Shown one piece after another: positions 18,499-64,000 of a DNA stretch of 64,000 nucleotides. The DNA is from an uncultured virus (IMG/VR IMGVR_UViG_3300035424_000203) (taxonomy: Duplodnaviria; Heunggongvirae; Uroviricota; Caudoviricetes): the IMG/VR virus record IMGVR_UViG_3300035424_000203. The stretch is one strand, 5' to 3'. Below the pieces are notes generated by a model that had not been told where the DNA came from, did not search any database, and saw only the letters and a program-made list of their open reading frames with translations. The translations under genes were made by a program, and so were the position numbers. How positions within the stretch are numbered: the stretch's first letter is position 1; every line of letters starts with the position of its first letter.

Positions 18499-18805
18499 GA
18501 CGTGCGTCTTATTAACCCATAAAAAACCTACATCATTTATTGAGGTTACAATGGACTATGAAAAGATTGTACCTAACCAAAAGCCAGGAAAAGCCACATA
18601 TAAGATGATAACGGACTATGTAAAAGAAAAATATGATCTTGTAGTGAAAAGCACAACAATAGCAGAAGTCAAACGCTCATTTGGTCTTGAAGTCGGAGAT
18701 TATAATATAAAGGATGAAAAAACAAATTATCGGAAAGAAAAAATCACACCAGATAAACGGAAAGCGGTTGAAGATGCACTAAGACATTTCGGAGTGATTG
18801 AATAA
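18494..18805 (+). pseudogene. Displaced RlmD 3' end with a mobile-element-type C-terminal extension
   Basis: Begins (N)VETCVLL, in register with rlmD ...ANVETICCL. KATYKMITDYVKEKY...ALRHFGVI resembles the extension seen on rlmD copies that carry integrated elements. Confidence 0.75.
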
Positions 18806-18928
18806 TTTGAGTATTTGCATAGGCACATATGCTGATAAAAAGTATGTGTGTCTATTTTTATGTTCAAATTTATCACTAATTGAAAAGCTCATTTCATTGG
18901 CAAATGGCAGAAAGGAGAATCAAAACCA

Positions 18929-19378
18929 ATGGCGAGAGTAAAAGCATTGTCAGCTTATAAAATGGCAAAACGTATATACAACAGGGAAGATAATGTTTAT
19001 GACAAGAAAGTAATTACAAAGCAATTGATTACAAACATTTTGCTTATGTATATGGACGAATGCCGGAAAGCATTAGCCGAAGGAGAGAGGATAGAAATAT
19101 CAAAAGTCGGTTCAATCATACCAGAAGTAAAAGTCCACGAAGGAAACTTTAATCTTCCCATGTGCAATAAAGACGGCGGCAATCCACCATATACAAAACT
19201 AAAGATAACACGGAATAATCTTTTAAATGAGACTATGAATAAGAATTTGCTTGGCAATATTGAAAACGGTATCTATGGACTGGATAAATTACCATTCAGC
19301 AAACAGCAAATGGATATTCTAAAGAAAAATGGATATATACCAGTAGATGCAGAAATTAAAAACGGAGATGATGAATAA
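18929..19378 (+). CDS. HU/IHF-like DNA-binding protein (divergent)
   Basis: ALAEGERIEISKVGSI matches the HU beta-arm pattern. Confidence 0.6.
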   Translation: MARVKALSAYKMAKRIYNREDNVYDKKVITKQLITNILLMYMDECRKALAEGERIEISKVGSIIPEVKVHEGNFNLPMCNKDGGNPPYTKLKITRNNLLNETMNKNLLGNIENGIYGLDKLPFSKQQMDILKKNGYIPVDAEIKNGDDE

Positions 19379-19818
19379 TGGCAAAGCATATTAAAAATAT
19401 GAAAGAACTTAATAAGGCATTACAGCCCGTAATGATGGGTATGGTAGACAAAATGGCAGAGAGAGTAGAGCAGACTTTGAATTACTTTCTGCAAAAATAC
19501 TACGACAGTTATGATCCGGTATATTACCGCCGTACATACGATTTCCTTCATTCCGCTATAAAAACAGAAGCTAAAGTAATAGGCAATAAGGTAGTTGCGT
19601 CTGTATATATCGATACGGATTCAATGGATAATTATTATGAAGCTACGGGTGAGGAAGTCGCTGCCTGGGCGAACCAGGGAACGCATGGAGGCACGATCCA
19701 GGGAAATAATACACCCCATGTTTGGGATGATACCATGCGTGAAACGATAGAAAACGGCGAACTATTGAAATTGGCAATGGATTATTTAAAGAGCAAAGGA
19801 TTTTCAGTAAGAAATTAG
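19378..19818 (+). CDS. HK97 gp10-like tail-completion/neck-type protein
   Basis: YYDSYDPVYYRRTYDFLHS...GTHGG pattern recalled from SPbeta-like tail regions. Confidence 0.5.
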   Translation: MAKHIKNMKELNKALQPVMMGMVDKMAERVEQTLNYFLQKYYDSYDPVYYRRTYDFLHSAIKTEAKVIGNKVVASVYIDTDSMDNYYEATGEEVAAWANQGTHGGTIQGNNTPHVWDDTMRETIENGELLKLAMDYLKSKGFSVRN

Positions 19819-19838
19819 AAAAAGGAAGGAGAATTACA

Positions 19839-20147
19839 ATGTTAGTATTGAAGAAAGAATTTATAGATCGGATGGCAGAAACGGGCGGTATTACAAAGAA
19901 GGCAGCAAAAGAAGGGCTTGAATTGTTTATTGAAACGCTTATGGATTGCATGGATGGGGATGAGAAAGTAATGATAAAAGGGTTTGGCAGGTTTGAAATG
20001 AGAACTGTCAAGGAGAGAAAAGGAAGAATGCCGCTAGGCGGTGAGGACTGTATTGTGCCGGAGCATAGGAAAATGAAGTTTTTTGTCAGCAGAGAAGTGG
20101 CTAAAAGAATGAGAACGGGTATGGAGGATTATTACATAGATGAATAA
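19839..20147 (+). CDS. HU-family DNA-binding protein
   Basis: KKEFIDRMAE...GDEKVMIKGFGRFE...GRMP...VPEHRKMKF. Confidence 0.9.
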   Translation: MLVLKKEFIDRMAETGGITKKAAKEGLELFIETLMDCMDGDEKVMIKGFGRFEMRTVKERKGRMPLGGEDCIVPEHRKMKFFVSREVAKRMRTGMEDYYIDE

Positions 20148-20427
20148 AGTACCAAATTGCGCTGAATGCGAATTTATGAAGATGTATAATATTTCATATA
20201 AGAATTATTATTGTGATCATGAAGACAGGATTAACGAAATGAGGGAATTGGGTGTGGATTATCCACCCAAAACAAGTCCCATGTGGTGTCCATTGAGAGA
20301 AAATAATAAGCAATATCAGAATGAGAAAGATTCAGATTTACCAGAAGCACCGAGATTAGAAATCTATCAAGAAACTTTTGGGGATTTAAAAAACATAACA
20401 AATGAATGGTATAGAAACAATGAGTGA
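20140..20427 (+). CDS. Cys-rich hypothetical protein
   Basis: CAEC...YCDH...SPMWCPL. Confidence 0.6.
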   Translation: MNKVPNCAECEFMKMYNISYKNYYCDHEDRINEMRELGVDYPPKTSPMWCPLRENNKQYQNEKDSDLPEAPRLEIYQETFGDLKNITNEWYRNNE

Positions 20428-20612: not shown

Positions 20613-21575
20613 ATGTTCAGTCCTATAAAAAGAGAAATAGTATTTATGTATTCTGAATTATTCAGAGCCCTATTTACTATGCGAAAAATGAAAAGGTGGT
20701 GTAGCTTGAAAGGGTACGTTTATAAATTTCTCAATAAGGATGAGAAAATAATTTATATAGGCAGTTGTGGTGATTTATTCAAAAGATTAAGACAGCATTT
20801 TGAACATGGACATTTAGGAGATTATTGTTATGACCAAGTTTTATATGTTGATTATGCAGAATTTAGAAGCAGGACAGAAGCATATATGTATGAGCAGTAT
20901 GAGATTGCAAAATATCAGCCAGAATTTAATGATAATGGCAAAATTGATGAAGATGTGGATTTAGAATATTTTGCAATAATTAAAAATCCTACATGGAACA
21001 GGTTATATGCAGAATCCAATTATGGGTATCGTTATGAAAAAGTATATACAAATTTCCTGACAGAGAATCCAAACAGGAAAGAACCTAACAGGGCAGATGT
21101 TATGTATGAAGCAGAAATATTGAAGCGTTTTAAATCTGAATTACAGGATAATAAGAAGATATTACACGATATGGAACTGTTACAAGCAAAATGTCCTACA
21201 TATTTATCTTTGATAGATAAAGTAGATTTAGAGATATTGATTCAGTGTATGCCAGAAGAAACAGTACATTATTCATATTTAGATTCTGTATGTCCAGAAA
21301 GAATGTCTGATACAGATTATGATGAAGTTTGCATTGATGGAACTATCAAGAAATTAGTAGACCAGTTACATAATTTAGAAGTCCATAGGTATTGTGGAAT
21401 GATATGTTGTTCTATTGGTGAATTTACTTTTGATTTTCCATATACAAAGCAATCAGATACAGCATTTTGGATTCCGGCATTAAATGATAAATCATTACAG
21501 GAAATAGAAAATAAAGCGGTGGAGATATTAAGTCAACGGAGAGATGGATATGAAGGGAATTTATTACAATTATGA
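20613..21575 (+). CDS. GIY-YIG nuclease-domain protein
   Basis: YVYKF...IYIG...KRLRQH...E...PEFN. The true start is probably the TTG near 20706. Confidence 0.75.
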   Translation: MFSPIKREIVFMYSELFRALFTMRKMKRWCSLKGYVYKFLNKDEKIIYIGSCGDLFKRLRQHFEHGHLGDYCYDQVLYVDYAEFRSRTEAYMYEQYEIAKYQPEFNDNGKIDEDVDLEYFAIIKNPTWNRLYAESNYGYRYEKVYTNFLTENPNRKEPNRADVMYEAEILKRFKSELQDNKKILHDMELLQAKCPTYLSLIDKVDLEILIQCMPEETVHYSYLDSVCPERMSDTDYDEVCIDGTIKKLVDQLHNLEVHRYCGMICCSIGEFTFDFPYTKQSDTAFWIPALNDKSLQEIENKAVEILSQRRDGYEGNLLQL

Positions 21576-21738
21576 TTTAGAGGAATGTAACTGGATGTTT
21601 AAACAGGGAGTACATCCTATAGGATGCGGTAAGCATGATAAGACAGGGAACACGTTTATTATCTTTATGCTGACAAAACAATATAGGCGGTTAGAAAAGA
21701 AATATAGGGAAGAAATACAAACAAAAAATAAACTATAA
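21544..21738 (+). CDS. Small phage hypothetical protein
   Basis: 64 aa, coupled to the upstream gene. Confidence 0.6.
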   Translation: MDMKGIYYNYDLEECNWMFKQGVHPIGCGKHDKTGNTFIIFMLTKQYRRLEKKYREEIQTKNKL

Positions 21739-21903
21739 TTTTATCCCCGTTAGGGGTAAGAATGGATCTCTTGTAGTAAAGAGTATCTCTTATAGTAGCA
21801 GTACCGAAATCAACACATTTGTGTACACTTGTCCTAGGTGGATTTGCAAAAAGTAACACGTTTGTGTACAAAACGGTACTTAGGAAGAAAGGGCGTAATT
21901 ATT

Positions 21904-23019
21904 ATGCTGAAATTATTTTTAGGAAGAACAAAAGAAATAAGCATTACGGAATTACCTGTAATGATGGTATTGAATGGTCTGCATAGTGGCAAGCACGATT
22001 ATCTGTTTACTTCTATATCTGAAATATCTTATACAATGACAGGATCATGGATTGACAAGAGGAATAATGACAGAAGATTATATAATGGCATCAAAGATGC
22101 TTTATCTACGCTTGCAGAAAGAAAAATGATCACAATATTAGATCAGAATGGAGACAACTATATTATTTCCAATAAGGGTTTAGAAGTAAATACAGATAAA
22201 GAAAAGTTTGTTGTAGTGGAATTATGGGAAATGCAGAAAATATTTTCAGAATCCAGTAAGCCTTTTAACGTGTTTACTTTCTATGTAAATCTGATAGGCA
22301 CAATCAATAATAAAACTAAAGAATGGCATATGTCTCAGGATGAAATGGTTTCATTATGGGGATCCAGTAAGCGTACTGTCAATGATTATTTGGAACAATT
22401 AGAGAATATGCATCTTATCTATGTGTATAGGCATAAAAAGCGTAGGGCGAATGGTACATATCAAAAGCTGAATAATTCATATGGTAGATATTGTGACAAG
22501 GAGGCTGTGATTGCTGAAGCACAGAAATATTCTGATACCATAGAATGTGAAGATTTTGTTGAAAAACTCGACAGAAGAGCGATCAAGCTGAGATACAATG
22601 CTTATTGCGAGGGTGCTAAGAAGTACATCAATAATCCTGTTGCCGTGATTGCATTATATAGGGAATGTCTGGCATATAATAAATCGCTGAAATACAAACC
22701 GGTAGAAGGTTATTATGATGGCGAGTATAAACAGGGTGAATTATTGAATTTATTGGTATTTCCTGATGAAGTAAGGAATGATGTTGATGATAACTGGGGA
22801 GAACCTGTCTCTATGGAACATAATTTCTCTGTAGAAGAAATACTGGATATGTCAGCAATGAGCGACAAAATTGGTGAACCGAAAGTTTCGGCTGACAAAG
22901 AGCAAAATCCGAAAATTTCAGATATAGCAGATAATAAAACTCATGGTGAAGATAATCATGAGTCTTTTTGTATTATTGGAAAGGATTCAGATTATATTGA
23001 TATAGAGGATTTGTATTGA
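21904..23019 (+). CDS. wHTH-containing protein, possible replication initiator
   Basis: MSQDEMVSLWGSSKRTVNDYLEQLENMHLIYV HTH; 16-bp direct repeats upstream. Confidence 0.55.
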   Translation: MLKLFLGRTKEISITELPVMMVLNGLHSGKHDYLFTSISEISYTMTGSWIDKRNNDRRLYNGIKDALSTLAERKMITILDQNGDNYIISNKGLEVNTDKEKFVVVELWEMQKIFSESSKPFNVFTFYVNLIGTINNKTKEWHMSQDEMVSLWGSSKRTVNDYLEQLENMHLIYVYRHKKRRANGTYQKLNNSYGRYCDKEAVIAEAQKYSDTIECEDFVEKLDRRAIKLRYNAYCEGAKKYINNPVAVIALYRECLAYNKSLKYKPVEGYYDGEYKQGELLNLLVFPDEVRNDVDDNWGEPVSMEHNFSVEEILDMSAMSDKIGEPKVSADKEQNPKISDIADNKTHGEDNHESFCIIGKDSDYIDIEDLY

Positions 23020-23256
23020 TAAGTATTTTGTGAGATTCAAAATGACCTACACAAATAAAAAGGTGCGTCAAATTAGACGCTGCTAAAACTGAATACAGCA
23101 TTTACAGAGACAGTATGAATCAATCGTATTGTCTCTTTTATTTATGAATAGGAATCGGAGCATACAGTCGGGATGCTCAATTATTAGCTGACCACAAAAT
23201 TGTGGTGAGTTATCTAAAAGACATATCGAAATTGAAAGGAATTTTTATAAGTAATA

Positions 23257-24468
23257 ATGAACAGAAAAGATTTAACAGGATTAGATACATCAAAATACAG
23301 ATATTGCAGTGAGTGTGGAAAGATACTGCCTTTGTGCCATTTTGAGGTGTCTTCTATCAATAAGAACAAAACAAAGATTTATAACCAGATATGCAAGCGG
23401 TGTGAAAAAAACAGGCAGTTGAAGCCTAAAATGCCTACAAAAATGAAAGTACTTGATGAAAATAACAATGTTCAGTTTGCCGAAGATATAGAAGAAAATG
23501 ACAATCCTATTAATGTGAAACTGATTAATGCATTTGAAACTTTTGTTCAGATTGAAGGTACATATAATTACTGGATTTCTAACTATGGAAGGGTGGTAAA
23601 TAATCTGCGGAATCCGTTTAAATATCATGTGCATAGTGTAGCAAATCATTATACGATGAATTTCTTTGATATTGATGGTAGCGCAAATATGGAAGATCAT
23701 TACACAAAGAATTTAATGGGTAAAATATTTCTGAAAAATCCTAATAATTACACAAAAATCTGGTTTATTGATGGTGATAAAAACAATTTTTATTATAAGA
23801 ATCTGGTCTATGTATCAAACAAAGATTATGATGATTTAATGTATGGCAGAAAGGACATTGATGATATTGAGATAAAACAAGAATATTATGAATACCCAAA
23901 CAAAGCCAGAAGTAAGGCGTATGCGGTTTATCAGGGCATATACAATAGATGTTATAAGAGGGATAAGTATACCAATTACCATGATTGTTACGATGGGGCA
24001 ACCATATGTAAAGAATGGCTTGAAAATCCAGAATTGTTTATTGACTGGTATTTAGAAAATTATTATCCAGTAAAAGATGAAATAATGGTGGTGGATAAAG
24101 ATTTATTTGGCAATGGGAGCAAAGAATATTCCCCGGATAATTGCTGTATTGTTCCCGTAACAATAAATGCAATGCTAACAAACTGCAAGAAACATGATAA
24201 TCCTGAGTATACGAATGCTGCCGATTTGCCTCTTGGAGTACGATACAATCCAGATACTCATATGTACTATGGGGAAATCACACCATTTGGTCATGATGAA
24301 CCAGCTAAACTTGAAGAATGGAATACACCAGAAGAAGCATTTGAGGAATATAGGATCATCAAAAAGGCAGATATTACGGTAATGGCTGTAAAGTATAAAA
24401 ATTATATTCCGCAGAGAGTTTTTGATGCTCTTATGCGTTATGAAGTAAAACCATATATAGAAGATTAA
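23257..24468 (+). CDS. NUMOD4/HNH-type homing endonuclease-like protein
   Basis: N-terminal CxxC pairs, YWISNYGRV, YNRCY...ICKEW...DKD...YSPDNCCIVP...LPLGV. Confidence 0.7.
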   Translation: MNRKDLTGLDTSKYRYCSECGKILPLCHFEVSSINKNKTKIYNQICKRCEKNRQLKPKMPTKMKVLDENNNVQFAEDIEENDNPINVKLINAFETFVQIEGTYNYWISNYGRVVNNLRNPFKYHVHSVANHYTMNFFDIDGSANMEDHYTKNLMGKIFLKNPNNYTKIWFIDGDKNNFYYKNLVYVSNKDYDDLMYGRKDIDDIEIKQEYYEYPNKARSKAYAVYQGIYNRCYKRDKYTNYHDCYDGATICKEWLENPELFIDWYLENYYPVKDEIMVVDKDLFGNGSKEYSPDNCCIVPVTINAMLTNCKKHDNPEYTNAADLPLGVRYNPDTHMYYGEITPFGHDEPAKLEEWNTPEEAFEEYRIIKKADITVMAVKYKNYIPQRVFDALMRYEVKPYIED

Positions 24469-28696: not shown

Positions 28697-29272
28697 ATGA
28701 AAGGTATCGATCTTAAAAATATGAAGCCGTTGACAGCAGAAGAAAAGGCATTCAGCGCCGATATGGGAAACTATAATCAGTTTTTTAAGTACATGAAGAT
28801 AAACAAGTTAGACCAGGAAGAATGGTATGATATTTTGATTCTGCATTATTTAAGGGCAGTTAAGAAATATCTTAATATCCCACATTTACAGCAATATGAA
28901 TTTTCAACAATCCTTTTTAGAACGCTGGATAATGCGAGGATAAACTACTTTAGAGATATGAACAGAGAAAAAAGAATGCCATCGGGCGGTATAGTATCCC
29001 TTGATTGGGAAGAAGATTCTCTGAATGAAAAACGCACTGCACCTATGACATGGATTGATTTAAAACAGTCTGTAGAAAAAACTGTTATGTACCATGAAAT
29101 GATATCGGAAATACTTTCAAACTTGAATGATGTTCAAGCTGAAATTTTCAAAATGACAATGGAAGAATACAATCGTGAAGAAATTAAAAGGTATCTTGGA
29201 ATAAAAAAGGGTACATTTTGCAAACGGATGAGGGAAATTAAGCATGTAGTAATTGACTACCTCTCAATGTAG
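28697..29272 (+). CDS. Sigma-70-like (ECF-size) factor
   Basis: Region-2-like YLRAVKKY and a region-4 HTH at the C-terminus. Confidence 0.65.
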   Translation: MKGIDLKNMKPLTAEEKAFSADMGNYNQFFKYMKINKLDQEEWYDILILHYLRAVKKYLNIPHLQQYEFSTILFRTLDNARINYFRDMNREKRMPSGGIVSLDWEEDSLNEKRTAPMTWIDLKQSVEKTVMYHEMISEILSNLNDVQAEIFKMTMEEYNREEIKRYLGIKKGTFCKRMREIKHVVIDYLSM

Positions 29273-29285
29273 GGAGGTAGTCACA

Positions 29286-29843
29286 GTGGAAAATAAACAG
29301 ATTAGACCGCTTACACCAACGGAAAGGCAATATGCAACGGAAAATTATCACCTAATCAGTAAGTTTTTGAAACTGTCAAAACTGGATGCGGAAGAATTTT
29401 TTGATATTGTAGTTTTCGATTTTCTATTGAGTGTGGAAATTTACTTGAATAATGAAGCGTTGCGGGAAAAATGCAACTTTGAAGCCGTCTCCTATATGTA
29501 TATGAAACGTGCGGTATATAGGCATTTTAGGGAACAGAAAGCGCAAAAAAGAAGTTCTGAATGCGGTGCGGATATTAGCTTTAATGAGATAGATGCCTAT
29601 ATAGGGCAATCAATCAGCGGAATGGAAAATCTTTCATCATTGGAATATGACGAAACCATTAAACAGATAGAAAGCATTTTGACAGCAGAGCAACAGCGGA
29701 TTTTCTTTGATAAGCTACAAGGCTATACACTCAAAGAAATAGCGGAAAATAGTGGAATAAAGCCCAAAAGGGTATATAAACAGTTTGGAAGAATCAAAAA
29801 TGTTGTAGCTGATGTGATGGAGAGTCAGCGGTTATATGGATAA
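29286..29843 (+). CDS. Sigma-70-like (ECF-size) factor
   Basis: GTG start after ggagg; LTPTERQYATENYHLI...GYTLKEIAENSGI; paralog of the upstream gene. Confidence 0.7.
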   Translation: MENKQIRPLTPTERQYATENYHLISKFLKLSKLDAEEFFDIVVFDFLLSVEIYLNNEALREKCNFEAVSYMYMKRAVYRHFREQKAQKRSSECGADISFNEIDAYIGQSISGMENLSSLEYDETIKQIESILTAEQQRIFFDKLQGYTLKEIAENSGIKPKRVYKQFGRIKNVVADVMESQRLYG

Positions 29844-31294: not shown

Positions 31295-31429
31295 TAAATA
31301 AGCCGTTATAGATGGAAATTTTCTGTCAGCATCAAAACAATAAAGTATGTACCCATAGAAAATGATTGAAAATTTAACGTAAAAAGAGTATACTATATTT
31401 AGAACATAATATAGAGATTGGAGGAACAT

Positions 31430-31663: not shown

Positions 31664-31675
31664 GAGTGATGCTCT

Positions 31676-40472: not shown

Positions 40473-40498
40473 ATAGAAATTCAAAAGGGGATATTCGT

Positions 40499-45728: not shown

Positions 45729-45827
45729 GAGATTATTACATAAAGGTTACAGGAAATTTATATAAGCATAGCAATATCTTGACAATATTTTTCAGATTAA
45801 ATTCAAAGAAAAAGGAGAAGTAATTAC

Positions 45828-46196: not shown

Positions 46197-46284
46197 ATTA
46201 GTATCGAATGTAGAAATAGATAGTGGTGGATGTAAAAACTTTTGACAAGCATTCACCACTTAAATCAGATTGGAGGAATGAGAT

Positions 46285-55300: not shown

Positions 55301-55476
55301 TAAGAGAGCAAAAAAATCTTGAAAGCGTAAATAAATTTATCTGGAATATATTTGATGAAGATATTGTAGATATTATTCCAGAGGGTAAAAGAAAAATCAG
55401 TATGTTTGAAGTGCAAGATGGTGATATGGAAATTTTAGGACGTAGATTTAAAGTTATCGAGGAGGAAATAATATAG
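52384..55476 (+). CDS. YonO-like single-subunit two-barrel RNA polymerase
   Basis: 1030 aa; FDGMGLV, KGLLVTF, CRSP, catalytic-like HSDSDWDSD, VGVYSN and EIDSTKTG. Confidence 0.8.
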   Translation: MNNENVLKAKKEGFVPVQYRIINLTSDEIVNSVTINGTMTVYKEDGKSYERKAEIHKVTPYTIDELKEKNMLITVADDILFYEIRKLKGLNDTTKTPNQQQYDAYLEVKKMRNNIKEMKRADEPDIESILKETKRLDKYLFVKDVISVENRSGDYKKFGVKGFYYGDVLYTRNSASSSNLKGNTVQFVRDDLNIKLQPILQAGHKDISQEALVVPEKYGAYMGLSTTGVTFVSSPRVCVIPDFEHLTFDDEVYFVTKKGEIIKKEAINTVEYSIEMRKFKDTGNDGETVYMNSFDGMGLVDPTFLKMKWQQELHLSYTPSALNMRSKSVKGLLVTFPFKELAQELGREYTTDILGQKMRIKDIDVFLTISQWKNHSLYDDDFRIYERNIDNVIWGVQRVSPKRDKDNVKLNYQAEQTSNIQSDTDIERLCDPTGKYFEQMAEGNDAVVLFSLMNDIIISNEDNMEIECVENVTESEEDFWSSVDTTPFNKALLKNLDLLQDTYVRGQIKKNLEFAFKQAKVGKLYTAHNSNYQFMISDPYALAQWAILRDEIADENGNYPTSPMRNGKDKFYFGLIKPYHIYSKYWLDKKVEKVDACRSPMTDIGEHNLLTISNNENTDNDAFEKMKKYYRYIYSGIIYSVHDISTVIHSDSDWDSDCVLTTDFDVLIDCRWDVPPVMYEKGLSKMDKRVYNVKTAVESDLKGFGNKVGVYSNMSTNYFAMLPMFKDAERVKIINQIKKLRFIIGEEIDSTKTGKKPDISMDFIYQSETKDMSMEERESVKEHNRFTPEFPAYFCRYLDEKKDRLFQKYYKICSLICQKETFMTMEKFLDKAQNGDLENESEKDFLRFFLDNSPLLLTDCTMNKVCWYFEKLEKELKGKFKIKDDNYILLSYADEVEVDKKSKNIINKTFSYYRDMIHEIWNEARYGNNCYNTDKKKTYVISKREQLIKNCRKDLEKIEVNPIKLFNIIVSVLREQKNLESVNKFIWNIFDEDIVDIIPEGKRKISMFEVQDGDMEILGRRFKVIEEEII

Positions 55477-56360
55477 TGGCGAGTAATTATAAGATTAATT
55501 GGCAGGACAAGTATCTTTGTGATACTATCCTTGCCAATAAAGATAATTTGGACGAAAATAGATTGAAATATGAGCGTAATTTTTGGACGGCATTATTAGT
55601 CAAACATTATATTGTATATGATTTATGCAATGGATCAACAGACATTTTAAAATTAAATGAAGTATTGGAAAAGCATAAAAAGGAAATAACAGCAAAAGCC
55701 AAAGAATATGTTAATGATGATTCAAGAGTAGAAAGTATAATTAAGGGGATAAAGAAGAATATAGACGATTTAAAAGATACAGATAAAGAAAATAAAAGGG
55801 TATTCTTTGCTGATAAACCAGTTGTGATTTATAGAAGTGAAATAGACACTATTCAACAAATCGGGAAAGATTTTACATATAATTCACAATTTGGGAAAAG
55901 ACCAAGAGAAATTTTACAGAAAATTATTTCTGTATTGCTTATATGGCAAAAAGCATATCAAAATCAATATGAAACAAAGCAAGAATATGTTCCTGTTATT
56001 GAAGAAAAGATTAATAATTCAAAGATTTTTTCTGATAATGGTAGCGAGAGTGGAACAAGAATAAAAAATTACCAGACACTTCTAGAAAGTGGATTAATAG
56101 AATATTACAGACCAGAGATAGAATATAGAAAAAGAAAGAAAAATCCAATTTATCTGTACAAAATTCCATTTATAAGTTATAATGAAAATGGTACAGATGA
56201 AATTGTTCTAGTTATTAATAAGTTTGAATTGCTGTGCGAACAGATGTTCAGCGGATTTAATGATAAGTTGTTTGTAAACGAATGTCAGAAGTGCGGGAAA
56301 ATGTTTGTAGCGAGACGAAAAAGCACAAAAAACTGTGATATTTGTAATAGACACTATTAA
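55476..56360 (+). CDS. Protein with a C-terminal zinc ribbon, coupled to the RNAP gene
   Basis: CQKCGK...CDIC; its GTG overlaps the RNAP stop. Confidence 0.75.
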   Translation: MASNYKINWQDKYLCDTILANKDNLDENRLKYERNFWTALLVKHYIVYDLCNGSTDILKLNEVLEKHKKEITAKAKEYVNDDSRVESIIKGIKKNIDDLKDTDKENKRVFFADKPVVIYRSEIDTIQQIGKDFTYNSQFGKRPREILQKIISVLLIWQKAYQNQYETKQEYVPVIEEKINNSKIFSDNGSESGTRIKNYQTLLESGLIEYYRPEIEYRKRKKNPIYLYKIPFISYNENGTDEIVLVINKFELLCEQMFSGFNDKLFVNECQKCGKMFVARRKSTKNCDICNRHY

Positions 56361-56718: not shown

Positions 56719-56892
56719 TTGTTAAAAGAATCAGTAATTGATTTTATCAACAAAAAGGGTGTTAAGAAGTCCTTTATAGCAGATCAAATAGGACTTACCC
56801 CGTCTCAATTCAGCCTATGGCTGCATGGTAGATTTAGTCTAAATCAAAGTGTAAAAAATAAGTTGGAGAAATATATCAAAGAAAATTCATAA
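56719..56892 (+). CDS. Small XRE-like HTH protein (57 aa, not in the ORF track)
   Basis: TTG start, RBS aaggag; KGVKKSFIADQIGLTPSQFSLWLHG. Confidence 0.7.
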   Translation: MLKESVIDFINKKGVKKSFIADQIGLTPSQFSLWLHGRFSLNQSVKNKLEKYIKENS

Positions 56893-56991: not shown

Positions 56992-57990
56992 TTGAAGAAA
57001 AAGGATACTGTATTAAGATATAGAAATATATCAATTTACCGTAGGGAAGTATTAGAGAAGGTAAACATTAAAAGTGTAGAATGTTTGCAAGCATATTTAA
57101 AAAATCTGACATTGGGGAATTTAAAACCTGAAACGATAGAGAATAATATTGCGACAATTATCAGGTGGCTTGAATATATTTATGAAGAATTGGATGATAA
57201 ATGTATTCTTGATATGACGATAGAAGATATAGAAGAATATGCGTATTATTTAAAATCCAAAAGAGATAATAGACCTCAAACAATTTCAAGAGTTTTGGCA
57301 GTTATCGAAGATATATATAATTATCTTTTGAAAAAGGAAATGGTTAAAAGTAATCCAGTTTCTTATGTAAAACGTCTAAAAGATATAAGACGAGAATACG
57401 AAGTTAAACGGATATTTTTAACAGAAGAACAGGTTGAAAATTTAAAATTGAAATTAGAGGAATACGGAGATATACAATTACAAACTTATATAAACTTTGC
57501 TCTTTCAACAGCGGCTAGAGCCAATGCGTGTGCAACACTCAAATGGGAACAAATTAATTTTGATAAGCGCATGGCAACGGATGTTATGGAAAAGAAATCA
57601 AAGTTGGTTACATTGTTTTTCAATGAGTATACAAAAAGTCTGCTTTTAAAATTACAAGATTATAGAAAAGAAAAACATATAAATGATGGTGGTTTTGTAT
57701 TTATCTCCAATAAATATAGATATTATGAAGATACAGGTGAAAAAACACATATAAGTTCTTCGACATTAGGGAAATGGGCGAACAGAGCAGGTGAAATGAT
57801 AGATGTTCCTGATTTGTCACCACATGACCTAAGAAGAACTGCTGCCAATTTATTATTACAAAGAGGTGGTGATATTGGAGTTGTTTCACTACTTTTAAAC
57901 CATGAAAATATTTCTACAACCTTTAAATACTATATCAATAAATCACAAAACGAGTATTTAAAAGAATACAAAGATAAGTTCGACTTTTAA
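56992..57990 (+). CDS. Tyrosine recombinase (SPbeta YomM-like position)
   Basis: STAARANA, PHDLRR, LLNHE and FKYY. Confidence 0.85.
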   Translation: MKKKDTVLRYRNISIYRREVLEKVNIKSVECLQAYLKNLTLGNLKPETIENNIATIIRWLEYIYEELDDKCILDMTIEDIEEYAYYLKSKRDNRPQTISRVLAVIEDIYNYLLKKEMVKSNPVSYVKRLKDIRREYEVKRIFLTEEQVENLKLKLEEYGDIQLQTYINFALSTAARANACATLKWEQINFDKRMATDVMEKKSKLVTLFFNEYTKSLLLKLQDYRKEKHINDGGFVFISNKYRYYEDTGEKTHISSSTLGKWANRAGEMIDVPDLSPHDLRRTAANLLLQRGGDIGVVSLLLNHENISTTFKYYINKSQNEYLKEYKDKFDF

Positions 57991-58073: not shown

Positions 58074-61000
58074 ATGGCACAAGAAAACTTTTGGATTGAT
58101 CTGGTTGCTACTCTAAAAAAGGCACAGAGTAAAAAACAAGTTCAGTCTGATGCAAAGAATTTGGGAGAAATAAAAGTACCCCTGATTGGAACGCTTAGTA
58201 AAGCTAAGACAAAGGCACAATTAAAACAGGATTTAGCGTCACTAAATGGAACGATAAATCTAACAGGAAAAGTTAATCAAAAAGGTATCGTTACATCGGT
58301 ACAACAGGCAACTTCACAGGCACAGGCGGCGGCAGACAAGAAAAGTATTCAGGTAAGTATGAATCTGAAGAAAGATAAACTTATCAATGACATTAAAATA
58401 CTTGGTCAGCAGAATACGAAAATGTTTAAAGATGCTAATATGTCTGCAAAGTATAATTCTTTATTGGATAATGCAAAATTAGCAACATCAAGTAAAGAGA
58501 TTGCCAATTTAAGATTGCAGTTATCAGCTATGCGGTCAGAAATTAAAGCTACTAATTTAAGTGGATTGACTCTTGGCGATACGTTCAAGAAAACATTCAA
58601 ACGTGCTACAGAGTTATTTACTGGTACTGGTGGAGTAATGTTGTTGTCTCAACAGATGCGTAAAGCATGGACAGAAGCTATAAATTTAGACAAGGCATAT
58701 ACTGATTTGATTAAAGTGCAAGATGAATTGTCGAGGGGCAATTATCCTACTTACTTGGAACAGTGTAATAAAAAAGCACAAGAATTAGCATCCACTCAAA
58801 AAGCATTAATTGAAGGTGCAACGGAATTTTCTAAATCTGGTTATACAAAAACAATAAGTGATGGCTTATCAGAGAAATCAACGATTTTAGCCAATGTTGG
58901 TGATATGAGTGCGTCTGATAGTGCAAAAGCAATTATTTCTGATGTACAGGCATATGATGTTGTAGATGGCTATGATGATGTAATTGATAAAGCCAATGCG
59001 TTAATCGACAAGTATAATGAGATTGGCAATACTGCAAGCATTACAACAAGTGAGATTGCTAAAGGTGTACAAACGGTAGGTTCGGTTTTTGCAGATGCAA
59101 ACACTTCTGTAGATGAATTTATTGCATTATTAGCGGCTGGTAATAGGCAATATCAGGATGCAGATGCTTTAGCATTAGGTCTTCGTACTGCGGCATTAAG
59201 GATTCGTGGATGTACAGCAGAGTTAGAAATGATGAATGAAGAAACGGAAGGTGTATATACTTCTGCATCTAAATTAGCTGAAAAGATTGAAGGTCTTACT
59301 AATGTTAATGGTACTGGTGGGGTAAAAATACTCGAAGATGATGAAGAAACTTTCCGCAGTATTTATGAAATTTTTCTTGATATTTCAAAAGTATATAAGG
59401 ATATGTCGGATACTGACCAGAGCGCACTTCTTGAATTGATAGCGGGCAAACATAGAGCTTCTGCAATTTCGGCAACTCTGAATAATATGAGCGAAGCACA
59501 AGAAATTTATCAGAGAAGTTTGGAATCGACAGGATCGGCTCAAAGAGAGTATGACAAGTATCTTTCATCAAGCGAGGCAGCGTTAAACCGCTTTAAAGCA
59601 AGTATGACGGAAACATATCAGTCTGTAATTGACGGTAAGACAGTAACAGGATTATTAAATTGTGGAAATGCGACTTTACAATTTGTAAATAGTCTTGGAT
59701 TAGTAGAATCTACACTAAAAGGACTTATTGCTATTGGTGTTGTAAAAGTTATTACTACATTATCCGCAGCATTTAAAGCATCCGCAATTCAGGCAAGCAA
59801 TTTTGGAACGGCATTAAATACTGTTAAAAATATGTCTACAATGACAAAAGGCACAACTGATTATACTAATGCTTTGAAAACCTTAAAAGCAGTATCTATT
59901 GGTTTATCAGAAACACAGTTAAAACAGGTTTTGGCAAGTAAAGCATTAAGTGAGTCTGATCGTATAGCAATTTTACGGACAACTGGACTTACAAAAGCAC
60001 AGGCACAAGCTAAACTTGCACAAATGGGCTTAACTCAATCTACAAATGCACAAACGGCAGCAAACGGAGCGGCAACAGCAAGTACATTTAGTCTTACAGC
60101 GGCGGTAAAAGGATTTGGTGCGAGTTTAAAGGCAGCCTTTATGAGCAATCCAGTAGGAATTGCAATTATGGCATTGAGTACAGTTATTGGAATGGTAACA
60201 TCTGCAATAGATTCAGCCAATCAGGAAGCAGAAGAAGCAAGACAGAAAGCCAAAGATGCGGCTGATACAGCAAGTACGTTATCAAATGAAATTTCCGAAC
60301 TAACAGGAAAATATTTAACTTTATCAAATGCGGTTCAGACAGATAAATCTTCAAAAGAGGATTTAATGACTGTACAGGAAGAATTGATTAAAAAACTTGG
60401 AATTGAAGGAGAAACTATTGATTCTTTAATTGCAAAGTATGGTTCATTAGACGAAGCTATAAAACAAGTGACGCTTGATGAATTAGGAAATATGGAAAAT
60501 GATCTTGTTGCAGGAGTAAAAGCGGCAGAAGATGAATTGAAAGAAATAGGAAAAGATTATGAACATTTTTATAGTCTGACAAATAGAAATCTTTTATCTT
60601 CTAGCGGTGAAGATGCAGTAAGAGCATACAGTGTATTAAATGAAGCTGGTATTATTGATAAAGGTTCTTATGGAACTGGTGGAGGTTCTATTGTATTAAC
60701 AGGTGATGATAGTACGGTAGAAGGAATCCTTGAAAATTATCAGAAATTGCAAGATGCTATGAAAGCATTAAGAGAATCTGATGAATTTACAGAAGAAGAA
60801 CTAAAAGATAATCCGGTATTTTTACAAATTTATAATCGTGTTCAAGAAATGAGAGAGTTTGTAGATGGTTATAATGATGCTATTACAGACTTAAATCAGA
60901 ATGTAGCACAGCAACAAATGTTAAGTTCTTTAAAGGGGATGGAATTACCTGATACAGAAGAAGAATTTAATGCTTTCAGAGACAATTTAGTAAAGACAGC

Positions 61001-64000
61001 ACAAAGCAGTAATGAATTTATAGGTTCACAGAAAGATATTGAAGAGGCTATAAATGGTTATCTTGCAACAGTTCCACAGTTTGCTGGTTATTATGGAGAG
61101 TTAAGTAATGCGGTAGAAAATGCCACAGAAACTATAAATCAATCGACAGAAGACATTTCAACAAATAAGGAATCACTAGAGGATATTATAAAGCAATATC
61201 CAGAACTTATTAAAAAAGCAACAGTCGGCAAATTGGATGAAGATGTATTAACGTCAACGGATCAATATGCAGAATTATTATTAAAAGTTGGATTAAGTGC
61301 TGATAGTTCTAGTAGTGATGTTAAAAAGTTAGTAGAACAGATTCAGGCAGTTGCGGATAATAACTTAATTGATAATTTAAAAGCAGTATCGGATGATTTT
61401 GAATCATTAGGTGATGTATATAACACTCTAATGAATAAGGGAGAATCACTTTCTATTGATAATTTAGACAGCGTTCAAAATGTGTTCGGAGATTTGGACA
61501 TGTTTGATGAATGGGTAAGGAAGGTAACAGATGCAGAGACAAGTACAGAAGATTTGCAGCAAGCATTTGATGACTTGGCTACTGAATACCTTAATACAAG
61601 TGAAATTTTCCAATCGTTCCTTGCACAGCTTACAGAACAGAATAAGGAATACTATGCTACACAGCTACAGGCAATGGGTGTTGAAAACTATGAAGAAGTC
61701 ATCTCCTATGCACAGGCACTAAATGAAGCAAAAGAAGTCTTATCGCAGTCAAGCTTAGGGTTTGGGGATGCCACCCAGGATGAAATAGAATCCCTGATTG
61801 CAGAGGGGGCATATTTAGGGCTCACCGCAGATTTGATACTGGCACTATATGATGCTAAAGTTGCGGAACAGGCTGCCACCCTTGATACTTCCGCTGATTG
61901 CGAGAACCTTATCGCCTTAGCCGGTGACACCGACAAGACAAGCAGGTCTATCCAGCTGCTTACCCATCTAATGGATATCTATAACGGGCTTGAAAGCGGG
62001 GCTTATGATGGGAACCGTTTGTTGCGGGAAGAAGCACTTGCAGAAGTCGACAGGATAAAGAAGGAGCTGGAAGGGCTTGCAAATGGGGAGGCGAAGGGTT
62101 CCCCGATTGAACCTACTGTCAAGCTGGGGGCTAAAGGGAGGTCAAGCGCAAAATCCGCCGGCAAGGAAGCGGCTGATACTTATCTTGAAGCATTTGAAAA
62201 GGAATTAAAAGACCTTGATGACCTGAAAGACCGTGGGAAAATCACGGAAAAACAATACCTGGATGCACTCCGCAGACTCTACCTAAAATATTTCCGCGAC
62301 AAGGAGAAATACCTAAAGGAATACGAGAAATACGAACACCAATACCTTGATGGCATGAAATCCCTCTATGAATCAGCATTCAGCTACATCACGAAGCAGG
62401 TCGGCAAGCGTATTGATGCATTAAATGATGAAAAGGATGCTGCCGTGTCCGCGCTTGAAGCGGAACGTGACGCAAGGCTTGAAGCCATAGAGGCGCAGAA
62501 GGAACAGCTTGAAAATGAGATAGAAGGCATCGAGAAGAAGATAGATGCCAAGGAAAAAGAAATCAAGGCGATGCAGGACGCAAATGAGGAACGCAAAAAA
62601 GCCGTTGATTTGCAGAAAGCGGAATATGAATGGCAGCGTATGCAGAACCAGAAGACCGCAAATGTCTATAAGGATGGGCAGATGGTATATGGAGCCGACA
62701 CGTCTGGAATCCGTGATGCCAAACAGCAGGTGGAAGACGCAAGGCTGGAAATAGACATCTCCAAAATCGAAAAGGAAATAGGCTTGCTCGAAGACCAGAA
62801 AGGCTTATTGGAGGAACAAATCGACTTGCTGGACAAGCAGGCAGACCAGATAAACAAATATTACGACAACCTCATCAAACAGACAGAATCACACTATGAT
62901 GCCATGATAAAGGGCATGGAGGACTACAAGTCGCAGTTCGAGGAATTGACAGATCTGCTTGAGGATGCACAGATGGAGGCGGCACTCTCTGAACTCGGCA
63001 TTAACATGGACGCGCTCCTAAGCGGCTCGCAGGAGGAATTTGAAAAGCTGAAAACTGCATATATCGGCATCCTTGCGGACATGGGCCGTGGGAATGAGGG
63101 CGTCATAGACCAGCTGTCAAGGCTTTCCGGTATCAGCACACAGTCCATTAGCTACCTTGAATCCACCAAGGATGCGTTTGATGGGCTTGGGGATGTGGCA
63201 TTGGGAGGGCTGGGGGAAAGCATTGACGGCATAGGCGAATCCGTAGGCGCCCTCTCCACAAGCGCAGGCGAAGCATCCTCTGCTGTCTCCGGGATGCAGA
63301 CGGACGTGGATAAAGCCACGCAAAGCGTTGCACCGCTGAATACGGAGCTTAGCAGCCTAAAGACGCTAATCACAGAGCTTATCGGGCTGCTTGACGGCAT
63401 CAAGTTCCCTGAAATCGGCGATGAAGGCTATGCGCAGAAGCTAAAGGATATCGCACAGGCATTCGGTGAAGTCGCATCGAAATGCAATGAATTTAAAAAC
63501 ATAGACTTCTCTTCCATTATAGGCACCCCCGAACCTGGCATGGATGGGGATGAAATGCCTAGCGGGGATGGCATGGGAGGGGCGGCTGGAACCGGGTTCA
63601 TGGGGCTTGCAGCAGCCATCAATGAAGCGGTTACATCCATCGGCGAGCAAATGGGCAACCTCGAAACGGCGTTGGACAAAGGGAATAGCCACTTTAAAAA
63701 GCAGATGGCTGTCATCAATGACGAATATATCCCAGCATGGGAGGATCTTCAGACACGGCTTGCTGAAATAATCGGCGTAGGCAGCGGTGGTGGCGACAAC
63801 AAAGAAGGCAAAGGGGATAAGGGGGCAGGAAGCAAAAGCGGGAACACTGAACCTGGCGGGAATGATGGCAGCATTATAGATATTATGCAGACAGGCGGGG
63901 ATGCAGTTGACGCAAAGCTGGAAGACCCTTGGTTGAAAGCATTCAACGACTTTGCAACGGACGGCGACAATTCCATCCAGACAATATGTAATAAAATTAT
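58074..64000 (+). CDS. Phage tail tape measure protein, partial (>1970 aa, absent from the ORF track because no stop occurs in the window)
   Basis: RBS aggagg, MAQENFWIDL...; TP901-type core (LDKAYTDLIKV...EFSKSGY...IDKYNEIGN...ALRIRG...IAGKHRA). The frame was spot-checked at 58656 and at the window end. Confidence 0.85.
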   Translation, partial: MAQENFWIDLVATLKKAQSKKQVQSDAKNLGEIKVPLIGTLSKAKTKAQLKQDLASLNGTINLTGKVNQKGIVTSVQQATSQAQAAADKKSIQVSMNLKKDKLINDIKILGQQNTKMFKDANMSAKYNSLLDNAKLATSSKEIANLRLQLSAMRSEIKATNLSGLTLGDTFKKTFKRATELFTGTGGVMLLSQQMRKAWTEAINLDKAYTDLIKVQDELSRGNYPTYLEQCNKKAQELASTQKALIEGATEFSKSGYTKTISDGLSEKSTILANVGDMSASDSAKAIISDVQAYDVVDGYDDVIDKANALIDKYNEIGNTASITTSEIAKGVQTVGSVFADANTSVDEFIALLAAGNRQYQDADALALGLRTAALRIRGCTAELEMMNEETEGVYTSASKLAEKIEGLTNVNGTGGVKILEDDEETFRSIYEIFLDISKVYKDMSDTDQSALLELIAGKHRASAISATLNNMSEAQEIYQRSLESTGSAQREYDKYLSSSEAALNRFKASMTETYQSVIDGKTVTGLLNCGNATLQFVNSLGLVESTLKGLIAIGVVKVITTLSAAFKASAIQASNFGTALNTVKNMSTMTKGTTDYTNALKTLKAVSIGLSETQLKQVLASKALSESDRIAILRTTGLTKAQAQAKLAQMGLTQSTNAQTAANGAATASTFSLTAAVKGFGASLKAAFMSNPVGIAIMALSTVIGMVTSAIDSANQEAEEARQKAKDAADTASTLSNEISELTGKYLTLSNAVQTDKSSKEDLMTVQEELIKKLGIEGETIDSLIAKYGSLDEAIKQVTLDELGNMENDLVAGVKAAEDELKEIGKDYEHFYSLTNRNLLSSSGEDAVRAYSVLNEAGIIDKGSYGTGGGSIVLTGDDSTVEGILENYQKLQDAMKALRESDEFTEEELKDNPVFLQIYNRVQEMREFVDGYNDAITDLNQNVAQQQMLSSLKGMELPDTEEEFNAFRDNLVKTAQSSNEFIGSQKDIEEAINGYLATVPQFAGYYGELSNAVENATETINQSTEDISTNKESLEDIIKQYPELIKKATVGKLDEDVLTSTDQYAELLLKVGLSADSSSSDVKKLVEQIQAVADNNLIDNLKAVSDDFESLGDVYNTLMNKGESLSIDNLDSVQNVFGDLDMFDEWVRKVTDAETSTEDLQQAFDDLATEYLNTSEIFQSFLAQLTEQNKEYYATQLQAMGVENYEEVISYAQALNEAKEVLSQSSLGFGDATQDEIESLIAEGAYLGLTADLILALYDAKVAEQAATLDTSADCENLIALAGDTDKTSRSIQLLTHLMDIYNGLESGAYDGNRLLREEALAEVDRIKKELEGLANGEAKGSPIEPTVKLGAKGRSSAKSAGKEAADTYLEAFEKELKDLDDLKDRGKITEKQYLDALRRLYLKYFRDKEKYLKEYEKYEHQYLDGMKSLYESAFSYITKQVGKRIDALNDEKDAAVSALEAERDARLEAIEAQKEQLENEIEGIEKKIDAKEKEIKAMQDANEERKKAVDLQKAEYEWQRMQNQKTANVYKDGQMVYGADTSGIRDAKQQVEDARLEIDISKIEKEIGLLEDQKGLLEEQIDLLDKQADQINKYYDNLIKQTESHYDAMIKGMEDYKSQFEELTDLLEDAQMEAALSELGINMDALLSGSQEEFEKLKTAYIGILADMGRGNEGVIDQLSRLSGISTQSISYLESTKDAFDGLGDVALGGLGESIDGIGESVGALSTSAGEASSAVSGMQTDVDKATQSVAPLNTELSSLKTLITELIGLLDGIKFPEIGDEGYAQKLKDIAQAFGEVASKCNEFKNIDFSSIIGTPEPGMDGDEMPSGDGMGGAAGTGFMGLAAAINEAVTSIGEQMGNLETALDKGNSHFKKQMAVINDEYIPAWEDLQTRLAEIIGVGSGGGDNKEGKGDKGAGSKSGNTEPGGNDGSIIDIMQTGGDAVDAKLEDPWLKAFNDFATDGDNSIQTICNKI

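Follow-up and report, generated by a model that had tools for sequence, protein, structure and literature searches.

An integrated element with its own RNA polymerase, a tubulin and a topoisomerase VIII-type enzyme, but without virion genes, at rlmD of gut Lachnospiraceae

An integrated element at the 3' end of rlmD

The DNA analysed here is a 64,000-nucleotide stretch from an uncultured virus (IMG/VR record IMGVR_UViG_3300035424_000203; hereafter, the window), within which lies a large integrated element encoding a YonO-family RNA polymerase (RNAP), a tubulin, a topoisomerase VIII (Topo VIII)-type enzyme and a giant tape measure protein (TMP). Three rare machines, namely the RNAP, the tubulin and Topo VIII, are thus joined in one element that is free of virion genes. 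Positions 1 to 10.7 kb of the window are host DNA, which includes pcrA (5763-8159) and, on the plus strand, rlmD, the gene for a 23S rRNA methyltransferase (9285..10667; NCBIfam TIGR00479 rumA, 2e-87), whose 3' end is the integration target; no tRNA gene was found in the window. The GC content is 0.41-0.48 over 1-18 kb and 0.28-0.38 from ~18.5 kb to 62 kb, with averages of ~32% for the large element and ~45% for the host part.

A 14-bp direct repeat, ACGGCGAATGTGGA, which forms the att core, is present in two exact copies, one within the 3' end of rlmD (10623..10636) and the other at 18485. In the uncultured Lachnospiraceae genome G001, which carries the one close copy of the element found in a scan of species genomes (contig C17, ~51 kb), the element directly joins the 3' end of rlmD with nothing between, and the repeat occurs once, at the rlmD/element junction. 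Because the 7.9-kb segment 10637..18484 has the repeat on both sides and is missing from G001, we infer that it is a separate small island and that the large element starts at 18,485. The first-pass annotation had the element start at 18,499; this start is corrected here, and the island is set apart. The large element, from 18,485 to ~8 kb past the window end, is one integrated element of ~54 kb at the 3' end of rlmD. The island encodes a tyrosine integrase with Xer-like NCBIfam matches beside rlmD (10806-12083, minus strand) and a P4-family primase (13095-14984; NCBIfam TIGR01613 primase_Cterm, 9e-58); compared with the large element, with which it stands in tandem at rlmD, it looks more like a small satellite of the classical type or an integrative island. 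Farther to the left, the host flank contains a gene for an IS21-type IstB helper ATPase (821-1504; 144 bits against the NCBIfam cut-off of 200).

The RNA polymerase gene lies next to the tape measure gene

In the right part of the window (52.4-64 kb, plus strand), genes for RNAP, a zinc-ribbon protein, a helix-turn-helix (HTH) protein, a recombinase and TMP follow each other directly, an order proposed in the first-pass annotation and borne out by Pfam, PHROGs, tblastn and inspection of the sequence. The single-chain RNAP (52384..55476; 1030 amino acids (aa); phrog_8308, 6e-57) has its DxDxD motif at residues 651-655 and is 98% identical in G001. In tblastn searches, it matches the annotated yonO of the Spbetaviruses Goe12 and Goe13 at 23% identity and phage BUCT082 at 28%, as well as Enterocloster phage PMBT24 and Clostridium phage c-st. 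The RNAP stop codon is overlapped by the start of a gene for a 294-aa protein (55476..56360; 97% identical in G001), in which a C-terminal CxxC...CxxC zinc ribbon can be read. Then come an HTH-like open reading frame (ORF) of 57 aa, likewise read from the sequence (56719..56892) and sharing 32% identity (E = 3e-4) with a 64-aa ORF that the metagenome locus L073 has between its RNAP and TMP genes, and a tyrosine recombinase of 332 aa (56992..57990; Pfam Phage_integrase, 2e-24; 99% identical in G001). The TMP gene starts 83 bases after the recombinase (58074..64000 within the window; PhageMin_Tail, 2e-14; phrog_4211, 7e-48); its frame is open for 1975 aa inside the window and reaches a stop 712 bases past the window end, as read from the metagenome contig L049, which makes a complete protein of 2212 aa. 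The TMP is a mosaic, with residues 1-1183 similar to G001 (98%) and residues from 1355 to the end similar to G002 (81%), one of two viral contigs, G002 and G003, from RNAP-encoding phages of Lachnospiraceae.

A chimeric assembly was considered as the source of this gene order and ruled out, given that L049, G001 and contigs from two different runs all show identical joins. A joint between 53610 and 58421 in X5 was set aside, with one side of just 20 letters.

On the map of Goe12, yonO is followed by yonN (HU), yonK, 27 coding sequences (~18 kb), a tyrosine recombinase (xerC_2, yomM), four small genes and yomI, which encodes the TMP; hence, the structural block lies between yonO and the recombinase/yomI region, as the first-pass annotation had stated for SPbeta. 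The element shares with SPbeta and Goe12 the YonO-family RNAP, HU and a tyrosine recombinase shortly ahead of the gene for a giant TMP (>2200 aa). The 332-aa recombinase occupies the position of xerC_2, although it lies 83 bases from the TMP gene, compared with 2.6 kb between xerC_2 and yomI in Goe12. A candidate YonV-like helicase is a further likeness to SPbeta, and a large serine recombinase at one prophage end, as seen in G001, may be another. Unlike Goe12, the element has neither the 27 coding sequences (~18 kb) between yonK and the recombinase nor the tail or lysis genes that follow the TMP. Furthermore, it differs from the Spbetaviruses in showing a protein identity of ~23% and no DNA match to them, in carrying TubZ and Topo VIII, and in residing in a Lachnospiraceae host. 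Judged by gene order, the window has the layout of this phage family minus the entire block between the RNAP region and the recombinase.

Comparison with phages of Lachnospiraceae points to a similar gap. In PMBT24, the order is RNAP, HU, terminase, portal, capsid, major tail protein, holin, RuvC-like protein, TMP, baseplate and lysin, and viral contig G003 follows the same layout logic. The element has in common with PMBT24, G002 and G003 the Lachnospiraceae host, an RNAP followed by a small partner gene, HU, a 146-aa protein whose homologue precedes the TMP in these phages, and a TMP C-terminus with 64-81% identity. In the three phages, by contrast, terminase, portal, capsid-region, holin and endolysin genes occupy the space between RNAP and TMP, and baseplate genes follow the TMP; in other respects, their backbone and that of the element are unrelated.

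No virion genes in the window or in the DNA past its end

Gene families were searched with Pfam for all 56 of 56 window proteins and with PHROGs for 60 of 60. Neither search detected a terminase, portal, capsid, tail tube, baseplate, holin or lysin in the window; in particular, there was no lysis-category PHROG and no lysin Pfam family. For features by which satellites redirect or exploit the packaging of a helper (small terminase, capsid-size factors, pac or cos site), these scans likewise gave no family match, which, with small unassigned ORFs remaining, is a failure to detect them rather than a proof that they are missing. The element, therefore, lacks virion genes.

The TMP gene runs off the window end, and the window contains two runs of N (38273-38305, 33 letters, and 47027-47037, 11 letters), so that a complete SPbeta-like prophage with its head and tail genes past the end or in the assembly gaps had to be considered. 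Contig L049 is identical to window positions 58310-64000 at 5691 of 5691 bases and continues for 3504 bases further, where it contains the TMP stop, a 108-aa gene, a gene for a truncated Dit-like protein of 277 aa and paralogs of the PHROG 953 'HNH endonuclease' family; no structural or lysis module is found in these 3.5 kb. L049 then rejoins the right-end paralog array of G001 at 95% nucleotide identity, which places the expected end of the window copy ~8 kb beyond the window. In public mouse-gut runs, two DNA contigs continue beyond the window by 5.8 and 8.2 kb, and the longer one agrees with the G001-based prediction; G001 itself reaches host DNA ~6 kb further on. In this family, as seen in PMBT24, G003 and Goe12, the head, tail and lysis genes between RNAP and TMP take up 18-25 kb, and there is accordingly no space for such a module in a copy that ends ~8 kb past the window. 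As for the gaps, the N run at 47,027, which sits in a 406-aa helicase-like gene, is bridged by public DNA contigs with 3 letters fewer, and the one at 38,273 is spanned by the G001 alignment. Even though 4.7 kb of the known following DNA are unread, a complete prophage is thus largely refuted, and we consider it highly improbable. The absence of a head and tail-tube module noted in the first-pass annotation is consequently real, and the module is not merely situated outside the window: the window, the following 3.5 kb, the N runs and the bounded relative G001 are all devoid of it. The finding thus withstands the refuting conditions that the first-pass annotation had set, namely a complete module downstream or in the gaps, or its retention in all close relatives.

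A close relative in another Lachnospiraceae genome

The headless junction of RNAP, recombinase and TMP is collinear in G001, at rlmD as well, and there too it lacks the module. Long parts of the element are 92-98% identical between the two copies, with one gap-free block extending from the topoisomerase C-terminus to TMP residue 1183, but the flanking pcrA and rlmD of G001 are only 67-77% identical to those in the window. The element, then, reached both hosts long after the hosts diverged. At its right end, the G001 copy encodes a large serine recombinase of 590 aa (phrog_95, 6e-115), IS200, RhuM and a second serine recombinase, beyond which host genes for a thioesterase and a MatE protein follow (GC 0.49-0.54). 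The two serine recombinases (590 and 560 aa; locus L015 4032-10025) lie 2.5 kb apart with IS200 and the RhuM-family gene between them; either the two form a pair, or another small element is inserted here in tandem. Neither the 15 right-end proteins nor the 28 proteins specific to G001 include a structural or lysis family; families that were detected among them are a divergent tubulin, an AAA+ ATPase and a primase-like protein. The possibility that the missing module resides elsewhere in G001 was rejected, as queries with terminase and portal of the G003 type found nothing there. The only phrog_2 terminases of this genome are on other contigs.

Close relatives are rare in the available collections. 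RNAP homologues are present in 17 of 401 genomes of a family sample and in 8 of 122 of the genus of G001, among which only G001 is close. None of four queries (RNAP, TMP N-terminus, a 229-aa protein and Topo VIII) revealed a close backbone relative in IMG/VR, and megablast of the 44-64 kb region against phages gave no match. The element is nonetheless a real and recurring sequence: the RNAP-TMP block is present at a share of 1.00 in 14 mouse-gut runs from at least six studies, although 10 of these runs may themselves be where this DNA came from and hence do not count as independent.

Identity to G001 along the element jumps between 52% and 98%, and mouse-gut DNA contigs match parts of it at >=95% and then diverge (at 44598, 47602, 47842, 48842, 54582, 56896 and other positions), the point at 56,896 being located just before the recombinase. 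These two patterns suggest that blocks have been exchanged with relatives, and mosaic relatives co-occur in these mouse-gut samples. The loose contig ends gave no match, neither one of them in viral contigs nor the 13 listed ones in the loci of this analysis.

Plasmid-type genes and topoisomerase VIII

The topoisomerase (48857..51292, plus strand; 811 aa) combines in one chain a GHKL HATPase_c domain (residues 39-136; Pfam, 1e-7) and a TOP6A Toprim domain (residues 572-692; Pfam, 3e-10), with the ExxxNxxD motif of the GHKL N-box and the DxD motif of Toprim both present, and a PDB sequence search matches the Topo VI A subunit (4e-4). A tblastn search of 72,556 plasmid records produced matches in five, the best of which is to Halalkalicoccus jeotgali (94% coverage, 9e-27); the others are Pseudomonas sp. 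Leaf58, two records of Paenibacillus polymyxa (including M1) and one Synechococcus plasmid. Three of these plasmids, from H. jeotgali, Pseudomonas sp. Leaf58 and P. polymyxa M1, are mentioned as carrying Topo VIII in the available text of the two papers on this enzyme (PMC7671362, PMC4117785). By sequence, the closest relatives of the 811-aa protein thus appear to be the described Topo VIII proteins, and it shares with them the single chain. Like the plasmids described by Gadelle et al. (2014) and Takahashi et al. (2020), the element encodes a single-chain type IIB enzyme with GHKL and Toprim domains, and like those that are integrated, it has recombinases and att repeats close by. What sets it apart from the described plasmids is that, here, a phage RNAP and TMP follow 1.1 kb after the Topo VIII gene. 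Both papers deal with plasmid contexts: the 2014 paper never uses 'phage' in its main text, and the terms 'prophage', 'tail' and 'RNA polymerase' are absent from the 2020 paper (PMC4117785, PMC7671362).

Topo VIII is accompanied by other plasmid-type genes, namely TubZ, two toxin-antitoxin pairs, an Xer-like recombinase and a 393-aa protein with a RepL-like lead, and taken together they give roughly half of the element the look of a plasmid that has integrated. The partition module consists of genes for a TubR-like winged-helix protein (85 aa) and the tubulin-like TubZ (360 aa; 42848..44165, plus strand, with TubZ itself at 43083-44165; Pfam Tubulin, 8e-9, and TubZ_C_3, 4e-5); a divergent tubulin is found at the corresponding place in G001 (phrog_17961, 'tubulin PhuZ', 2e-10). 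Also on the plus strand are a putative toxin-antitoxin pair of an Arc/CopG-like and a PIN-domain protein (31418..32152; Pfam Arc, 6e-4, and PIN_3, 2e-7), a Phd/YefM-ParE toxin-antitoxin pair (41326..42121; Pfam PhdYeFM_antitox, 9e-12, and ParE_toxin, 3e-15) and the Xer-like tyrosine recombinase of 291 aa (32928..33803; Pfam Phage_integrase, 2e-31; phrog_1, 2e-39).

These genes raise the question of whether the element ever was a phage. It could instead be an integrated plasmid of the Topo VIII type that captured a late-region fragment, from RNAP to TMP, of a phage or tailocin and never was a complete phage. Topo VIII has been reported only from free or integrated plasmids, in as much of the two papers as was available (PMC4117785, PMC7671362). 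In our searches, the enzyme has no match among 50,697 phage records and no PHROG match; TubZ, the toxin-antitoxin pairs and the Xer-like recombinase are of plasmid type; and headless blocks with RNAP next to TMP stand as separate units in other Lachnospiraceae (see below). However, SPbeta-type genes are spread element-wide, with HU and the 146-aa gene at the left and the YonV-like helicase candidate at 46 kb, and no relaxase or conjugation gene was detected in the Pfam and PHROGs scans of the window proteins. Tubulin is not confined to plasmids either, being carried also by the phage-plasmid c-st, which in the present searches appears just as an RNAP match. On balance, we regard this origin as quite unlikely.

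Erosion of the late region

Residues 1-263 of the 277-aa Dit-like protein encoded past the window are 100% identical to a 403-aa protein encoded after the TMP in G002 and 86% identical to that of G003; the 403-aa protein is homologous to one of PMBT24 annotated as 'baseplate hub'. Beyond codon 263, the Dit-like gene no longer resembles these 403-aa relatives. In the DNA alignment, similarity to G002 (98.3% over 1128 bases) ends at L049 7579, and the match to the G001 paralog array begins at 7560, with ~20 bp of microhomology between the Dit-like gene and the array across L049 7560-7579. Such a junction is typical of a deletion or of illegitimate recombination. In G001, it is the TMP that is cut: it matches that of the window up to residue 1183 (of 2212), continues for 63 unrelated codons to a stop and is followed by two extra paralogs absent from the window copy. 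Since the junctions differ, neither copy can be derived from the other by a single deletion, and the cut Dit-like gene here together with the cut TMP in G001 suggests that the late region is being eroded. Accordingly, the proposal of the first-pass annotation that the element supplies only its own tape measure is weakened, with the Dit-like gene cut at codon 263 of 403 and the G001 TMP at 1183 of 2212, and its argument that intact long ORFs speak against decay finds no support in a late region that is eroding while the rest of the element is intact.

Apart from the cut genes themselves, the PHROG 953 family is represented by a full-length 403-aa copy at the left (23257-24468; plus strand; phrog_953 'HNH endonuclease' family, 2e-30) and by three to five shorter copies of the C-terminal half near the right end (L049 7732-9194; L015 12307-15774 in G001), and both deletion junctions lie at or in this array.

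A grounded phage-plasmid derivative or a helper-dependent element

The reading that we prefer, and to which we give about an even chance of being correct, is that of a grounded derivative of a phage-plasmid whose late operon is gone, in which the leftover tail genes are still being trimmed and which is unable to build a virion, given the lack of recognisable packaging, head, tail-tube, baseplate and lysis genes. The element would then combine two sources. Early and transcription genes would stem from a temperate phage of the SPbeta/c-st type (RNAP with its zinc-ribbon partner, YonV-like helicase, HU, two sigma-like factors, an ImmR/ImmA-like switch and the giant TMP), and maintenance genes from a plasmid (TubR/TubZ, Topo VIII, the RepL-like initiator, the Xer-like recombinase and the two toxin-antitoxin pairs). 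The TMP block would be the leftover of the late operon, cut away by deletions or illegitimate recombination. The element presumably is held in the chromosome by the right-end large serine recombinase, which is seen only in G001, and could be kept there by toxin-antitoxin addiction together with selection on the early genes; upon excision, it may replicate and partition like a plasmid.

Known elements resemble it in part. The phage-plasmid c-st has TubZ in common with it, the differences being that the element lacks virion genes and is integrated at rlmD. The skin element of Bacillus subtilis is a large phage-derived insert with a large serine recombinase at its border, which is stably kept despite the loss of its virion genes. 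Unlike grounded prophages of the skin type, however, the element is shared across species at 94-98% identity, carries plasmid partition and topology genes and is under purifying selection.

Several observations weigh against this reading. The ratio of non-synonymous to synonymous substitution rates (dN/dS), which the first-pass annotation had suggested computing, is 0.04-0.26 for 19 of the 19 genes compared with G001, indicating purifying selection, with values of 0.046 for RNAP, 0.05 for the zinc-ribbon gene and 0.044 for the recombinase; even TMP residues 1-1183 have a dN/dS of 0.06 (27.5 non-synonymous versus 114.5 synonymous changes; dS 0.17). Both copies already possess the headless RNAP-recombinase-TMP junction, which, being collinear in the two, predates their split, and outside the late region, no gene is broken. 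The identity of 94-98%, compared with 67-77% for the host flanks, implies transfer of the element from species to species, which would not be expected of a simple dead remnant unless an intact ancestor infected both hosts; no intact relative with a head module was found. Further, structural proteins that have diverged strongly may escape searches by family, several proteins of 229-294 aa are unexplained, and the window's own right end was read to +3.5 kb only. The shared junction combined with selection is the strongest point in favour of the satellite proposed in the first-pass annotation, but does not settle the matter, given the jumps in identity along the element and the diverging mouse-gut contigs described above.

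Under that alternative, a helper-dependent, satellite-like element would excise, replicate and partition by itself, by means of its initiator, helicase, Topo VIII and TubZ, and be packaged and spread by a related SPbeta-like gut phage, for example of the G002 type, with its own RNAP and TMP possibly steering or exploiting the late functions of the helper. We consider this possible but rather unlikely. It would account for a headless layout that predates the split of the copies while all compared genes are under purifying selection, and for elements that are 94-98% alike at the same att site in hosts that are 67-77% alike. Moreover, the 1.1-kb stretch 98.3% identical to a G002-type contig implies that both met in one cell, the mosaic identity and the metagenome contigs with loose ends speak for a pool of relatives that exchange DNA, and ~54 kb is roughly a third of the genome size that CheckV implies for G002 and G003. 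However, none of the known hijack genes, such as a small terminase or a gene that redirects capsid size, could be recognised, and the truncation of TMP in G001 and of the Dit-like protein here indicates that neither is a required contribution. Nor was a G003-type terminase or portal detected in G001, which has phrog_2 terminases on other contigs only, and all four queries with backbone genes came up empty in the viral contigs of IMG/VR. Compared with the phage satellites P4, PICI, cf-PICI and PLE, the element is likewise integrated, without most or all virion genes, equipped with its own regulation and, likely, its own replication, and present in different hosts at one att site, but it is 5-10 times larger, contains no recognised gene for packaging or capsid redirection and carries an RNAP, a tubulin and a topoisomerase.

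Taken further, the element could represent a new class of ~54-kb helper-dependent elements of SPbeta-like gut phages that combine RNAP, tubulin and Topo VIII with the absence of virion genes and either ride in related capsids or interfere, via RNAP and TMP/Dit, with late expression or tail assembly; this we regard as doubtful. Defective prophages are common, yet this element crossed between two gut Lachnospiraceae with its remaining genes under selection and is therefore well suited to the question of what role a phage RNAP plays after the late genes are gone.

Other genes of the element

The left end of the element (18485..20427, plus strand) consists of genes for proteins of 103 aa, 149 aa (HU-like; 18929-19378; Pfam Bac_DNA_binding, 8e-4, a weak match below the Pfam cut-off), 146 aa (19378-19818; phrog_16108, 2e-5), 102 aa (HU; 19839-20147; Pfam Bac_DNA_binding, 1e-19) and 95 aa. 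Homologues of the 146-aa gene lie directly upstream of TMP in G002 and G003 (tblastn, 29-34%). A model of its fold (pLDDT 65.5) has no match at E <= 0.001 in PDB or BFVD, and the best named BFVD entries, 'tape measure chaperone' (E 0.03) and neck/HK97 gp10 (E 0.08-0.2), provide a weak lead only. Thus, the HU genes, the 146-aa gene, the tubulin and the topoisomerase named in the first-pass annotation are all present, with the 'neck-like' label of the 146-aa gene being such a weak fold lead.

Next, at 20613..24468 on the plus strand, are genes for a GIY-YIG nuclease (320 aa; Pfam GIY-YIG, 1e-8), the 393-aa putative replication initiator, for which there are weak phrog_186/345 matches and an Atlas lead with a high score to RepL/HTH clusters, and the 403-aa phrog_953 protein described above. 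Two adjoining sigma-factor-like genes (191 and 196 aa; 28697..29843, plus strand) match Pfam Sigma70_ECF (7e-7) and phrog_1740/351 'RNA polymerase sigma factor'. An HTH repressor and an M78 (ImmA/IrrE-like) metalloprotease are encoded as a pair (40011..40954, plus strand; Pfam HTH_3, 5e-14, and Peptidase_M78, 6e-9) that is likely to be the induction switch; such an HTH/M78 pair is also situated directly 5' of RNAP in the tail cluster of another genome, G171 (see below).

The candidate YonV-like helicase (406 aa; 46327..47547, plus strand; phrog_2467, 4e-62) has Atlas leads with high to very high scores from residues 1-233 to YonV_C, ResIII and DEAD clusters and may resemble the YonV helicase family of SPbeta. 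Just before RNAP, a 229-aa phrog_6329 protein is encoded (51342..52031, plus strand; 5e-33), which is 96% identical in G001. PDB sequence searches with the RNAP and with the 393-, 294-, 253-, 237- and 229-aa proteins returned nothing usable. With helicase and initiator leads available for the 406- and 393-aa proteins, the longest unexplained ORF is no longer than a Lar-like protein of 436 aa.

The genes just after TubZ (77, 237, 110 and 122 aa; 44001-46200) are matched at 100% by RNA contigs at a depth of 33-68. These come from two runs of one study, X15 and X16, in which the depth is 33-68 at 44.0-46.2 kb and 1-5 at the RNAP, with no contigs at 58.0-60.7 kb; the contigs derive from metatranscriptome libraries that possibly hold DNA, so that they are an expression hint only.

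Compact clusters of RNA polymerase and tail genes without heads

We also read the 20 kb downstream of RNAP in 14 other Lachnospiraceae genomes with an RNAP homologue, a side result that may matter more than the element itself. A TMP homologue begins within ~3-8 kb of RNAP in 8 of the 14, and a terminase comes first in only one. Three of the eight (G171, G398 and G229) were examined in full and contain compact clusters of 18-25 kb between core host genes, among them queA, uvrB, infB, rimP and polC (L115-L116, G171:C16 ~17.2-39.2 kb; L104-L106, G398:C1; L111-L112, G229:C1). Each cluster comprises RNAP, three to six genes for proteins of <=303 aa, a TMP of 1700-2100 aa and homologues of the tail genes that follow the TMP in G003. 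Dit-like and tail-tip genes are present, joined by an amidase in G229 and by an HTH/M78 pair in front of the cluster in G171.

None of the three clusters contains an integrase, a replication gene or, between RNAP and TMP, an ORF big enough for a terminase or portal. Queries with G003-type terminase and portal found nothing anywhere in five such genomes; this terminase query does pick up a homologue of 28% identity in G031. The fold model of a 262-aa 'virion structural' protein of G171 failed (pLDDT 28.9). A further cluster, in G001 itself (L129-L130, G001:C33), has an RNAP 75% identical to those of G002 and G003, followed by structural homologues, holin, lysin and TMP, and is without the head block of G003; this contig ends shortly past the N-terminal part of the TMP.

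On gene content, these clusters look like loci of flexible-tail bacteriocins (F-type tailocins) with a polymerase of their own. The clusters of G171, G398 and G229 fit the pattern of tail tube, tip and lysis genes without a head much better than does the element in the window, in which no tail tube, baseplate/tip or lysis set was found and which has just the TMP and the truncated Dit-like gene. In the available parts of the literature on tailocins of Lachnospiraceae and on satellites or tape measures of SPbeta, we found no description of such clusters. YonO-type polymerases in the 'main genomes' of Firmicutes are left as an open point in the accessible text of an earlier study (PMC5467207); in 3 of the 3 genomes examined in full, such polymerases head compact tail-only clusters between core genes.

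In a number of relatives, the TMP frame itself is split into two or three pieces, and the 1-10 kb between them hold other genes, many of which run on the opposite strand. Split loci were observed in G003 (L026, L027 and L081; ~43-61.7 kb reversed), G002 (L021 and L084), G171 (L116 3863-12895) and G229 (L111 from 12075 on). The inserted DNA encodes small zinc-ribbon and unassigned proteins and, in G003, phrog_2598 proteins.

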